A DNA stretch of 64,000 bases from an uncultured Actinomycetes bacterium (GCA_963706025.1 CAVPLM010000003.1:192001-256000), one strand, 5' to 3'; shown: positions 3,475-15,176, numbered from the stretch's first letter. A program made the numbers and translations. The notes: a model not told the origin generated them from the letters alone.

Positions 3475-3584
3475 CCGGGCCCGCCCTGAGAGCGGACTCG
3501 GACGTGCCTGAAAGGCTCTATTACGTAGACAAGCCGAACCGCGTCGGCCATTGTTGTATTTCTGCCCCTGACTGGTCCTGAAAG
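3475..3584 (-). repeat. Degenerate copy of the 3' end plus terminator of the 14148-15176 gene, fused to a conserved 34-bp arm (att-like scar)
   Basis: Hairpin ccgggcccgccctgagagcggactcgg resembles the 14072-14112 terminator; the minus strand encodes ..MADAVRLVY; arm 3551-3584 is 29/34 identical to 8261-8294. Confidence 0.75.
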
Positions 3585-3628
3585 CAGCAAGTCAGAAGGA
3601 CAAGGGCGAGGTAGCGAGTCGGGTGGGT

Positions 3629-3657
3629 TTGACCGATCCTGGCTTGGGGCATATAGA
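3629..3657 (+). promoter_or_regulatory. Housekeeping sigma-type promoter of groESL
   Basis: TTGACC-17bp-TATAGA immediately upstream of CIRCE. Confidence 0.75.
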
Positions 3658-3666
3658 GTGTACAAG

Positions 3667-3693
3667 TTGGCACTCAGAGGCAACGAGTGCCAA
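3667..3693 (+). promoter_or_regulatory. CIRCE operator (HrcA binding site)
   Basis: TTGGCACTC-N9-GAGTGCCAA versus consensus TTAGCACTC-N9-GAGTGCTAA, upstream of groES. Confidence 0.95.
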
Positions 3694-3772
3694 TCCCACC
3701 AGAGGCGTTTCATCGCGCGTTCGAGGCGAGAGCAATCCAGCACCCGAACGTGAGTACAGGAGGTTATTGCGC

Positions 3773-4066
3773 ATGAAACTAGTGCCACTCGAGGATAGGG
3801 TCGTAGTGAAGTTGGTGGAGCGGGAAGAGAAGACTTCCAGCGGCATCGTTCTTCCCGACACCGCCCAGGAAAAGCCCCAAAAGGCCACGGTCGTGACGGC
3901 AGGGCCCGGAAAGTACGACAACAATGGCACGCTTATGCCCATGCCGGTGAAGAAGGGTGACCTCGTCCTTTTCGCCAAGTACTCGGGCACCGAGGTCAAG
4001 CTCGATGGCGAGGAGTATCTGGTGCTGCGGGCCACGGACATCCTGGGAGTTCTGAAGAAGGGGTAG
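3773..4066 (+). CDS. groES: Co-chaperonin GroES
   Basis: [46 protein letters not shown]. Confidence 0.98.
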
Positions 4067-4121
4067 TTCGACCAGGGACTTCGCGTGCCGATCCTATGCT
4101 CAAACGAAGGAGACAAGGTTC

Positions 4122-12006: not shown

Positions 12007-12013
12007 GCGAGAT

Positions 12014-13204
12014 TCAGCCACCGAACGCCACGCTGAACGTGCTGCCCTTTCCCACCTTACTTTCCACATGGACGGTCCAACCATGGGCCTCGACGATGCG
12101 GGCCACTATTGCCAGGCCCAGACCAGACCCTTCCTCGCCGCGGGCGGATTCCGCCCGGTAGAAACGATCGAACACGTAAGGAAGCGCCTCCGGTGAGATC
12201 CCCACCCCGGTGTCACTCACGGAGAGACCATCGGACGAGAGACGGAGTACGATCTTCCCTCCCGGGGGCGTGAACTTCAGAGCGTTCGTCAAGAGATTGT
12301 CGATGAGTTGCCTCACTAGTCCCTCGTCGCAGTCTACGATCAATCCCTCGGCAAGCGTGCTGGTGAGCTCGATCCCAGCTTCGCCGGCCGCCGGCTGATG
12401 CTGTTCCACCTCACTCGCCACGAGAGCCGACATGTCCGTCGGCGTCGGCGAAAGAGCCAGCTCGTCTAGTTCAGCCAATTGTAGAAGGCGCTCGATAAGA
12501 CGCGAGCCCTGCTTCAGTTCGTTCTTGGCTACCTGGATCTCGCGCTCGTGGTCTCCGCTCTTCAGCGCAAGGTCGAGCGAGGAGCCGACCGTGGCCAGGG
12601 GAGTGCGCAGTTCGTGGCTCGCATCATGGGTGAACTGACGGAGGCGGACAAACATCGCTTCCGCCGGAGCCAGGCTTCGTTTGGCGAAGAGCAGCCCGAA
12701 AACGAAGGTGAGCGACGTCACCACGATGGCCACGATGCCGAACAGCATCGCCTCACCGGGCAATTCATGGACGTCTATGCGTTCCGGCCGCGCTACCTGC
12801 AGATAAGTCGCCGCTTCCCCTGCGCCGCCCAGAGGGACCTCGTATACACGGTAATAGCTCCCCGACCCTTTCACAGTAAGGAACCGGGCCGTCGTCCCTG
12901 CTTGCATCGGGACCGACAAGCGCCCAAATAGGTCGCTCGCGAAGATCACCTCCCCTTGGCCCGAGAACACGCGGACGGCGGCGTCATGGAGGGTTGCGGC
13001 GGCCTCTGGGATGGCGGCGGCGTCCTCAGACGCCTCTGCGAGCTTGGTCTCAAACTGGACTGCGTCGGTCCGTAGCTGATCGTTTGTCGACCGGTGCGTG
13101 CCGAAGTACTGTACGCCTATGAACGCGCCCCCCACCAGCAGCATCAGAGCGAACACCAGCCCGGTGAACTGGAGGGCGATCCTGTAGCGGAGGCGGCGGA
13201 ACAT
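12014..13204 (-). CDS. Sensor histidine kinase
   Basis: Two TM segments, H-box DASHELRTPL, NLLTNALKF, DTGVG, GLGL. Confidence 0.93.
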   Translation of the reverse strand: MFRRLRYRIALQFTGLVFALMLLVGGAFIGVQYFGTHRSTNDQLRTDAVQFETKLAEASEDAAAIPEAAATLHDAAVRVFSGQGEVIFASDLFGRLSVPMQAGTTARFLTVKGSGSYYRVYEVPLGGAGEAATYLQVARPERIDVHELPGEAMLFGIVAIVVTSLTFVFGLLFAKRSLAPAEAMFVRLRQFTHDASHELRTPLATVGSSLDLALKSGDHEREIQVAKNELKQGSRLIERLLQLAELDELALSPTPTDMSALVASEVEQHQPAAGEAGIELTSTLAEGLIVDCDEGLVRQLIDNLLTNALKFTPPGGKIVLRLSSDGLSVSDTGVGISPEALPYVFDRFYRAESARGEEGSGLGLAIVARIVEAHGWTVHVESKVGKGSTFSVAFGG

Positions 13205-13209
13205 GGCCT

Positions 13210-13869
13210 CTAGGCGGGGACGAAGTAGCCCTTGCCGGGAACGGTACGAATAACGTCCTTGCCCAGCTTGCGACGTAGGTAGGCCACGTGTACATCGACC
13301 GTCTCCAGGGGGATCGACGCGCTGTGCTCTCCCCATACATGCGCGACTATGGTCGCCCTGTCTTGAGCCACACCCGCATGTCGCATGAGGTATTCCAGGA
13401 GTCCATACTCCTTGGGGGCCAGGTGCACGGCCTCACCGTCCTTGCGCACTTCGTGAGTATTGGTGTCGAGGGTGACCTGTCCCGCCTGAAGGAACGGATT
13501 GGATGCCGTACCCCGGCGCCTGAGGAGTGTGCGGACCCGGGCTGCCAATTCCTCCATATCAAAGGGCTTTACCTGGTAATCGTCGGCGCCGGCATCGAGC
13601 CCCTGGACGACGTCCCGCTTGGCGCCGCTCGCCGTAAGGATGAGTACCGGAGAGGCGTTCCCCGCGGTGCGGAGGCGGCGGCACACTTCCAGACCGTGTA
13701 GACCGGGCAGGTCGAGATCGAGGATGATACAGTCATGCTCCTGACGCAGCGCCCGGCGCAGCCCCTCGGCCCCATCGAAGCACACCGAGGCGGCATAGTG
13801 TTCCAGCTCGAGGTATCGCCGGATGTTGTTGGCCAGAGTCCGGTTGTCTTCGATTATGAGGATCTCCAT
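13210..13869 (-). CDS. OmpR-family response regulator
   Basis: IIED, ILDLDLP, GADDY.VKPF, VDVHVAYLRRKL, TVPGKGY. Confidence 0.95.
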   Translation of the reverse strand: MEILIIEDNRTLANNIRRYLELEHYAASVCFDGAEGLRRALRQEHDCIILDLDLPGLHGLEVCRRLRTAGNASPVLILTASGAKRDVVQGLDAGADDYQVKPFDMEELAARVRTLLRRRGTASNPFLQAGQVTLDTNTHEVRKDGEAVHLAPKEYGLLEYLMRHAGVAQDRATIVAHVWGEHSASIPLETVDVHVAYLRRKLGKDVIRTVPGKGYFVPA

Positions 13870-14071
13870 CTGGCCTCCCGATCTTTGCCCCAGGTCCGCT
13901 CAGAAGGCCAAGATACCCGAATCTCGCCCGCCGGTCAGCATCGAGCGTTATGTTACGCTCAAGTATAGTCATATGGGCACCTTCGACGACCCCTCAGTAC
14001 CCCGCGCGTCTGCGTCTTCGCTTGCCCTTAGGCGCCCGTCGCAGTCCGGCACGGAGCGTCTGCGGCTTCAC

Positions 14072-14122
14072 GCCCTCGAGATGACACCGGGCCCGCCGCG
14101 AAGCGGGCCCGGCATCGACTCA
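14072..14122 (-). terminator. Hairpin terminator of the NlpC/P60-golvesin gene
   Basis: ccgggcccgc-cgcgaa-gcgggcccgg just after the stop codon. Confidence 0.7.
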
Positions 14123-14147
14123 ATTCGCGCTGCGAAGCCGAGAAACG

Positions 14148-15176
14148 CTACTGCGCAGGCACGAACTTCACGGCATCGGCCACCACGTAGCCGTTGGCTC
14201 CGGTGGCAAAGATGCTGATGCTTCCCGTTCCGGTGCTGTAGCCGGCGCCGAAGTTGTAGCGGCCCAGCGAGTACCAGGTCCCTCCGTTCAGTCGCTGGTT
14301 GATGTAGCGATCGTATTGGCCGGCGGGAGTGTTGACGTGTACCAACGCTACCGAAGCCCGGTTGGAGCCGCTTGTCCAGCGTAAGTAGATGGTGTACGAG
14401 CCGGACGAAGGGAATCGGGGCGTCCAGCGGGCCCAACTGGTGCTGGTGGTGGCAGCCTGCACCTGGTAGTCGTCACCGTAGTACCCGGAGACGCTGGTGC
14501 TGCGTGTCCAGTTGCCGCTCAGGTCCTCCCCACCGGTGCTCTTGGCGGTCGGATTGTCAAGAATGATCCCGGATGTCACCACGGAGTCCCGCCGGCGGGG
14601 TTCGTACTCGCTGCCCAGGTAGCGGCTCACCCTGCGCACGGTCAGGCCGCTGCCGGGAGCCTCGTAGATGATGGGCGAGTTCCAGGTGTCGCCACCGGCA
14701 TAGATGACCACGTGTCCGGAGACGCCGTTGTTCTTGACTAGTACGTCGCCCTCGCGCAGGAGCGAGCGGTCGCTCAGTGCGGACCAGGGTCCCAGGCAGT
14801 TGAAGAAATCGTAGCTGGTGTAGCGGGGGTAGATAGAAGTGTTCTCTCCATCCTCCTCCTGGTAGAGGAGTGTCCGAGGCACTTCCCAACACTTAAGGGT
14901 ATATCCGGAACAGTCGGGTCCGGGGCCGCCGCCCAGGTTGGGAGTCCAGCTCTCCCGGCCCCAACTGTAAAGGGCGCCGATGCCCGACTCCGCCCGGGCG
15001 ATGATCTCAGCCCGAGTCACGCTGGGGATGCCGGCGCGCGCGTCCGATGGCGCAGGACCGAAAAGCAGGCCGACAGCGGCCAGCGCCAGCATGAGGCCGC
15101 CGGCCAGGGCCGCGTGGCGGGAGCCAGTGGAGGTTGGGATGCGGTAACCGGCGCGAGTGTTCGGTCGACGTGTCAT
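14148..15176 (-). CDS. Secreted NlpC/P60-like cell-wall hydrolase with C-terminal golvesin/xanthan-lyase-type carbohydrate-binding domain
   Basis: Signal peptide; YSWG..DCSG and GD..GHV catalytic motifs; C-terminal IILDN..GNW..GYYGDDY..INQRLNGGTWYSLG.Y.F..ADAVKFV. Confidence 0.8.
   Translation of the reverse strand: MTRRPNTRAGYRIPTSTGSRHAALAGGLMLALAAVGLLFGPAPSDARAGIPSVTRAEIIARAESGIGALYSWGRESWTPNLGGGPGPDCSGYTLKCWEVPRTLLYQEEDGENTSIYPRYTSYDFFNCLGPWSALSDRSLLREGDVLVKNNGVSGHVVIYAGGDTWNSPIIYEAPGSGLTVRRVSRYLGSEYEPRRRDSVVTSGIILDNPTAKSTGGEDLSGNWTRSTSVSGYYGDDYQVQAATTSTSWARWTPRFPSSGSYTIYLRWTSGSNRASVALVHVNTPAGQYDRYINQRLNGGTWYSLGRYNFGAGYSTGTGSISIFATGANGYVVADAVKFVPAQ

Follow-up and report, generated by a model that had tools for sequence, protein, structure and literature searches.

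What has laid out the 3' end of one gene three times in tandem, with different accessory genes behind each copy? The question arises in a 64,000-nucleotide stretch of DNA, here called the window (GCA_963706025.1, CAVPLM010000003.1:192001-256000), from the genome (G000; 3.66 Mb, 92% complete, 7.3% estimated contamination) of an uncultured member of the Actinomycetota, Thermoleophilia- or Gaiellales-like, from soil or freshwater. The gene concerned encodes a Golvesin_C protein (14148..15176, minus strand), and its last 11 codons form the putative attachment region. Sequence comparisons give good support to the view that the locus is a real integration hotspot with a new target. The account favoured here, with a probability of about 0.6, is that cassettes without an integrase built up at the gene end by Campbell-type recombination, first through a tyrosine recombinase acting in trans and later through homologous reshuffling.

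The target protein carries its Golvesin_C domain at residues 214-339 (Pfam PF25275, E=9e-30) and matches the profile as far as position 131 of 132; the C-terminal domain also matches residues 905-1038 of PDB 6f2p_A. An earlier, sequence-only reading of this DNA had labelled the gene NlpC/P60-golvesin; the NlpC/P60 part was not confirmed, with no match in Pfam and one in NCBIfam at E=0.006 only. A golvesin gene is present in 22 of the 24 family genomes searched. In G000 the Golvesin_C gene is single-copy, so that the alternative then offered, in which the repeats are the ends of intact paralogues, fails.

A convergent SLH/CAP-domain gene (153..1757, plus strand; Pfam) marks the far side of the site, which was surveyed in 41 sequences, the window and 40 other loci. 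This neighbour was found downstream in 19 of them; in the other 22 it was lacking from the available DNA, the sequence ended early, or (n = 3) no gene end was matched to residue 330 or beyond. It stands 77-179 nt behind the golvesin gene, the spacing of an empty site, in 13 of the 19 loci, and 941-12,397 nt behind it in the remaining six, the window having the largest distance. Empty sites are found in G002, a genome of the same genus, and in G007, of the same family. Homology to the empty site picks up again near 1850 in the window, and the inserted region spans ~1850 to 14180; it does not begin at 3475, as had been proposed.

Direct repeats of the target 3' end surround the inserts, with three such tails each in G000, G003 and G019. 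The repeat units share one order of modules: an arm of ~40-50 nt, a 33-nt tail with its stop codon, a spacer of ~30 nt and a GC-rich hairpin block. Tail A (14148..14182, minus strand) consists of TG, ten codons (ADAVKFVPAQ) and the stop; it is the working end of the gene and is attL-like, and at its start begins the similarity to B, to C and to the arm-tail junctions of other genomes. The spacer and hairpin block A behind it (14065..14147, minus strand) form a 3' untranslated region (UTR) and terminator of the element type. Tail B (TDSVMFVKAQ and stop), its spacer and a 17-bp perfect hairpin occupy 8144..8260 (minus strand) and make up, with arm B, an attP-like junction. Arm B (8261..8307, minus strand) is the conserved non-coding end of cassette 1, its last letters being CACAATG. 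Tail C (ADAVRLVY...) and a hairpin of a second type lie at ~3440..3550 (minus strand), next to arm C (3551..3596, minus strand), the end of cassette 2. The common boundary seen in the sequence-only reading is borne out, with similarity in both B and C starting at TG/RCCGA.

The modules differ in how closely they agree. Unit A (14065-14182) and unit B (8144-8260) are 80.5% identical over 118 nt, with 23/33 positions shared in the coding tail, 21/31 in the spacer and 49/52 in the hairpin block; in BLAST, hairpin block A has one mismatch over 48 nt to 8144-8191, and a 41-nt run inside it is identical. Arm B (8261-8294) matches arm C (3551-3584) at 24 of 27 positions by BLAST and at 32 of 40 in an alignment, and matches the arm that ends cassette 1 in G003 at 34 of 40. 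The arm core reads AGGGGYAGAAAT..CACA[A/G]T[G/C]. A degenerate pattern of arm core plus core has exactly two matches in the window (3544-3569 and 8254-8279, both on the minus strand) and none in 100 shuffles of the window with up to two mismatches allowed, and across the 3.66 Mb of G000 the arm occurs at two places only, arms B and C.

Tail C had been described as a more decayed copy of A. Instead, tail and hairpin are of another type, common to loci L030 and L052 (84% over 63 nt against L052); the C-type hairpin lies 3' of the gene in L024, L027, L030, L037 and L052. Tail B (xDSVMFV...) in turn resembles gene ends that are native in other genera (L024, L028), and unit B matches the unit that precedes cassette 1 in G003 (G003_2) at 30/33 positions in the tail, 26/31 in the spacer and 46/52 in the hairpin block. 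Because tail B and the C-type hairpin are those of gene ends at other loci, the tails are foreign gene ends and not products of decay in place. The type-A spacer and hairpin are also found 3' of the gene in G001, where a different insert of 4.4 kb follows a tail and hairpin of type A, and in G003, and are missing from the empty-site genomes G002 and G007. The gene of G000 is restored by the element-borne tail A, with a 3' UTR of the element type behind it, unlike that of its empty-site relatives.

From the gene outward, the stack in the window reads gene with tail A, hairpin, cassette 1, tRNA fragment, arm with tail B, hairpin, cassette 2, arm with tail C, second-type hairpin and cassette 3. 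Cassette 1 (8366..14064, minus strand) also stands at the same site in G003, where it is 94.5-95.9% identical to the copy in G000; the flanking genes are 72.5-77% identical, which shows recent horizontal spread of the cassette. The proximal order in G003 is gene with tail and hairpin, a 2-kb cassette X, a related arm with a B-type tail and hairpin, and cassette 1; distally, cassette 1 is followed by tRNA fragment and arm, the native tail and terminator, and the SLH/CAP gene. At this end the arm meets GCCGACGCGGTGAAGTTCGTGCCCGCGCAGTAG and a native terminator like that of the empty-site G002, a similarity read directly, the global alignments of G003 tails against the G002 flank being gap-ridden and giving no usable figure. 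The surrogate tail of the G003 gene carries a 2-nt insertion and a frameshift (L013:2751-2830), so that the protein ends in ...KFVSLRSSVSCHYTAD and a stop, a 13-residue out-of-frame extension. G019 (locus L030) has two stacked cassettes, with a tRNA T-arm fragment beside one arm. Aligned across relatives, the locus therefore has the presence/absence breakpoints by which the sequence-only reading could be checked: empty sites, other cargo, and a G003 cassette at 94-96% against flanks at 73-77%.

Arm-tail junctions were found with a sequence-only covariance model in five of 61 family genomes, belonging to four genera: two each in G000 and G003 and one each in G019, G058 and G062. Five junctions went into the model; a sixth, the inner one of G019 (L030_1), misaligned and was left out. 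The boundary always lies 0-6 nt from GCCGA. Two contigs of G062 share an identical 127-nt terminal suffix starting at GTAGTG/GCCGAC, reached in one through the gene and in the other through a cassette arm; this k-mer fork is explained either by filled and empty alleles existing side by side or by a perfect repeat that is 127 nt or longer. The arm-plus-tail pattern has two matches in metagenome contigs, both from the same strain as the window. One metagenome contig (L057), from a strain almost identical to that of the window (98.9% in the gene), lacks window positions 14007-7129, and the breakpoints of this deletion fall outside the repeats. In place of cassette 1 it has 177 nt (L057:872-1048), including a 73-nt piece (96%) of a gene at G000:C8:140695-140767.

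Arm B adjoins a 3' fragment of a tRNA-Ser(CGA) gene that extends from anticodon loop to acceptor end (8308..8362, plus strand, opposite in orientation to the golvesin gene) and matches the intact tRNA at G000:C8:41197-41288 in 54 of 55 positions. The sequence-only reading overlooked both this fragment and its link to arrays elsewhere. Arm and tRNA-Ser(CGA) fragment adjoin in cassette 1 of G000 and of G003, and again in G019; a possible decayed T-arm upstream of arm C (~3615-3640) was judged by eye. ARAGORN finds no complete tRNA in the 64-kb window, and in 40 loci, examined with flanks of up to 10 kb, no tRNA-Ser gene was found natively beside the golvesin gene.

Across G000, tRNA-Ser(CGA) fragments number 28 at E<=1e-3, intact genes and the arm-B fragment not counted; T-arm copies number 26 at up to one mismatch, these two kinds included, and 21 in G001, 6 in G002, 5 in G003 and 6 in G019. 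Co-oriented arrays of fragments stand behind intact tRNA-Ser(CGA) genes on C8 (41-130 kb) and C7, with further arrays on C5 (685-691 kb), C10 (28-36 kb), C18 and C11. The fragments in them measure 30-57 nt, are spaced 0.3-25 kb apart and each have the terminator of the tRNA behind them; no robust motif common to the 60 nt preceding each of the 28 fragments was found, GGTAG occurring by eye in ~5 of 28. Similar tRNA-Ser arrays are present in G001:C6 (at least 16 T-arm copies over ~100 kb), G019:C8 and G011:C1, and most cassettes of the arrays in G000 and these relatives lack an integrase. Such arrays are classic traces of repeated tRNA-gene integration. The tRNA-island signature, an intact tRNA with a displaced 3' fragment, is present on C8 and C7 and absent from the window.

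The two kinds of site share cargo. Cassette X of G003 has a counterpart inside a tRNA-Ser array, at G001:C6:10918-12812, to which it is 90.3% identical over 1907 nt; beyond the shared end, G001 runs on for ~21 nt into a tRNA fragment, and G003 for 27 nt, which are the arm core, into a golvesin tail. With cassette X at both sites, the same cargo is found behind either att module.

In the mechanism that we favour, the golvesin 3' end would serve as the attB site of a family of small circular cassettes, none of them with a recombinase gene of its own. Campbell-type recombination between the module of a cassette and the gene end would insert the cassette, supplying the gene with a surrogate C-terminus and terminator and pushing the older tail behind the arm, and repeated insertion would stack cassettes by accretion. 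The first insertions would have been made by a tyrosine recombinase provided in trans by elements behind the tRNA-Ser(CGA) arrays, the target module having been switched. At the distal junction of G003 the 33-nt tail is all that is held in common with the element, so that the crossover of the first insertion into an empty site must have fallen within the last 11 codons. Later exchanges, including the last one in G000, would have taken place by homologous recombination in the 41-48-nt identical hairpin block, and illegitimate recombination would also have taken part in the later shuffling. The simplest history for G000 would have a cassette-1 circle, bearing arm, tail B and hairpin, recombine inside the hairpin block with a resident gene bearing tail A and hairpin; a crossover there would leave B as an intact attP-like junction. 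Of the earlier proposal, repeated integration with a replacement C terminus and terminator stands, given the empty sites and the displaced tail in G003; its site-specific character we infer only, and the A/B mosaic puts the last exchange in the hairpin block, not at ADAV.

Several observations weigh against this account. In G001 the cassette-1 operon occurs alone at another locus (C15:399968-405946, L081), at 96-97% identity with flanks 81-83% identical to G000, and has neither tail, hairpin, tRNA fragment nor arm; it sits between two core genes whose empty counterpart in G000 is C3:54504-54607, and no border repeats were seen there. The left tail of cassette 1 is A-type in G000 and B-type in G003, so a single, fixed crossover point does not account for both. 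The A/B mosaic, together with a junction in cassette 2 where its left 969 nt (7190..8158), 99% identical to G000:C8:140886-141853, meet the hairpin block at a 15-nt microhomology, shows general or illegitimate recombination acting too. No recombinase was found by Pfam among the cassette open reading frames (ORFs) of the window, G003, G001, G019, G058 and G062, and G003 (96% complete) has just two PF00589 matches, both Xer-like. A search for a free attP beside an integrase found none in the 61 family genomes, one metagenome scan and the viral, plasmid and phage collections. Twenty sequencing runs contain part of the stretch; in the four that were examined, the Logan contigs are short and break at the repeats (8151-8323), which they do not bridge. 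None of them joins across a cassette or spans a circle junction, and no excision product was seen, a negative that, with such contigs, says nothing about excision.

The rest of the recombinase search agrees with the statement in the sequence-only reading that no integrase is in the window, where no PF00589, PF00239 or PF07508 domain was found. All eight PF00589 matches of G000 lie elsewhere; two are Xer-like, and remnants occur in the arrays on C10 and C18. Resolvase or large-serine recombinase domains were not found in G000 (92% complete). Two integrase ORFs do lie inside the tRNA-Ser array of G001 (C6:3356-3910 and 6481-6990). The arm-plus-tail pattern has no match in viral contigs, and unit B, searched in distant mode, none in plasmids and phages. 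The absence of an integrase-bearing helper is weak evidence, since metagenome-assembled genomes (MAGs) often miss such elements.

The same observations raise the possibility, which we regard as improbable yet still serious, that no dedicated recombinase was ever involved. Circles would then form and re-insert by RecA-type homologous recombination over the 35-120 nt that the tail, spacer and hairpin of a cassette have in common with the resident gene end, the constant boundary being inherited from one ancestral cassette. The peak of A/B identity in the hairpin block (49/52, with its perfect 41-nt run), the different tails of cassette 1 in G000 and G003, the lack of integrases in the cassettes, the solely Xer-like enzymes of G003, the microhomology junction in cassette 2 and the non-att deletion in L057 are all as this would predict. 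It has more difficulty with the first insertion into an empty site, for which only ~33-36 nt of similarity are available, and with the arm motif, which is kept across four genera where other intergenic DNA is unalignable even within a genus; moreover, the arms are tied to tRNA-Ser fragments, a hallmark of integrase-made junctions.

Those fragments could also be given the leading part, the locus being a displaced tRNA-Ser(CGA) array in which recombination occurs at the tRNA fragment and the golvesin tails are mere passengers. The fragment beside arm B, cassette X in the G001 array and a decayed fragment at 26501-26536 would fit, and yet we consider this very improbable: the 64-kb window has no tRNA gene, golvesin and SLH/CAP genes are adjacent with no tRNA between them in empty-site genomes, the gene-proximal junction contains no tRNA sequence, and the junctions of cassette X, G058 and G062 consist of arm and tail with no tRNA fragment. 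Scarcely credible is an origin in local decay of paralogues, in tandem duplications or in an assembly or binning artefact. The estimated contamination of 7.3%, the power of repeats to mislead assemblers and the break of public contigs at 8151-8323 give some cause to consider it; set against these are the single Golvesin_C gene, the stop of similarity at the same nucleotide where a shared arm takes over, the reproduction of the A and C junctions by the independent contigs L057 and L058 and of the tRNA fragment-arm end of cassette 1 in G003, and the relatives with empty sites.

Beyond trans-acting integration at the golvesin gene, a wider and more doubtful proposal would be an integron-like economy in this family: recombinase-less cassettes bearing either a tRNA-Ser(CGA) or a golvesin 3'-end-plus-terminator module might shuttle between the arrays and the golvesin site, mobilised by a rare integrase in trans, with specificity lying in the module and not in the cargo. 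In integrons, recombinase-less cassettes are stacked at one site and mobilised in trans, with the newest nearest the anchor. The golvesin-site cassettes are likewise recombinase-less and stacked at one site, the newest closest to the gene, and presumably mobilised in trans; they differ in having no intI beside the array, in containing several genes with their own promoters, and in a repeat that consists of a gene tail and a perfect hairpin, where integrons have an attC with extrahelical bases. An integron in the proper sense was rejected for the locus, the window having no tyrosine recombinase and its repeats being gene tails with a perfect palindrome and no attC.

Actinomycete elements of the pSAM2 and SLP1 type have an att identity segment that extends from the tRNA anticodon loop to the 3' end, and bring their own integrase and excisionase. 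The tRNA-Ser fragment at arm B has the same extent, from anticodon loop to 3' end; unlike those elements, the golvesin-site cassettes have no integrase or excisionase. Integrative mobile elements exploiting Xer (IMEX) use a dif-like site of 28 bp with an AT-rich centre. By eye, the core and hairpin here have no such centre; G000 has two Xer-like genes.

A closer likeness is to the streptococcal cis-mobilizable elements (CIMEs) as excerpts of PMC7563491 describe them: elements of 1.2-13 kb that have kept their att sites, lack recombination genes, and stand in tandem with integrative and conjugative elements (ICEs) or integrative and mobilizable elements (IMEs) of the ICESt3 family at the 3' end of fda, rpsI or rpmG. 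As far as that account goes, the likeness extends to att-bearing, recombinase-less units that stand one behind another at the 3' end of a conserved protein gene, with varying order and cargo (PMC7563491). Here, in contrast, the end of a Golvesin_C gene is the target, and the hosts are uncultured Thermoleophilia-like Actinomycetota; no integrase-bearing partner ICE or IME was found at the site in any genome; and the att module, which adjoins a tRNA-Ser fragment, can be exchanged for one of tRNA type. The locus works like a CIME array, with incomplete membership, as no helper of the same specificity was found.

In islands at tRNA genes, as outlined in parts of the Islander report (PMC4383910) and of the account of Prochlorococcus tycheposons (bioRxiv 10.1101/2020.12.28.424599), the island restores the split target and a displaced fragment marks its far end; repeated integration moves older elements inward, leaving partial tRNAs and degraded integrases. 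The tRNA-Ser arrays of G000 fit this logic, so far as those parts set it out, exactly. At the golvesin site a protein C-terminus is restored and not a tRNA, and the cassettes have no integrases. A limited literature search, which is no proof of absence, found nothing joining golvesin with attB, an integrase or an integration site, and a similarly limited one nothing joining Thermoleophilia or Gaiellales with integrative elements, genomic islands or tRNA-Ser. The locus resembles the mobile-element pile-ups of other bacteria; the target and the tie to tRNA-Ser arrays are new, and the kind of system is known.

The locus would add a new protein-gene attachment site, in the last strand of the Golvesin_C domain, from an uncultured lineage of actinobacteria on which little work has been done. 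Its empty, filled and differently filled alleles show a route of entry for accessory operons (a metal or cation ATPase with a two-component system, a spare GroEL, WD40 and PIN proteins). Target switching is directly testable, as the same cassette stands behind a tRNA-type or a gene-tail module. The defined arm-tail and gene-end sequences would serve as substrates for finding the recombinase, and possibly as a genetic tool for Thermoleophilia-like bacteria.

The cargo of cassette 1, assigned like that of the others by Pfam, is encoded on the minus strand: a response regulator (13210-13869), a histidine kinase (12014-13336), a cytochrome-b561-like protein (11557-11931), a zinc-ribbon protein (11071-11430) and a P-type ATPase (8417-11074). 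This operon is found in other genera at 67-81%. Cassette 2 (3585..8143) has genes on both strands, for a PRC-barrel protein (7450-8070, plus), an RsgA GTPase (5966-7054, minus) and a second GroEL (4122-5762, plus), and further ORFs with no assignment. This GroEL and the copy at G000:C5:507-509 kb share 90.6% of their amino acids and 79.6% of their nucleotides. No counterpart of the cassette was found in G001, G002, G003 or G007. Cassette 3, or a separate insert (1850..3439, minus strand), encodes an AAA_14/DUF4143 ATPase (1895-3340); it has no arm at its far end, and no counterpart was found in the same four genomes. Cassettes of other genomes carry WD40, PIN, TIG, HTH and NYN proteins.

Rfam at gathering thresholds has no match in the whole window. 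A decayed tRNA-Ser fragment at 26501-26536 (plus strand; 91.7% over 36 nt), with a terminator hairpin before it, may be the trace of a further old insertion, ~11 kb past the golvesin gene. Elsewhere in G000, a gene-free unit of ~170 nt occurs in nearly identical form at C8:41288-41476 and C11:71967-72155; it is bounded by a full tRNA or a fragment and by a second 18-nt tRNA end, and resembles the streptococcal 'microCIMEs'. The intact tRNA-Ser(CGA) genes at C7:19263-19353 and C8:41197-41288 have near-identical upstream flanks and different arrays behind them, and are probably two strain variants of one locus that were binned together.

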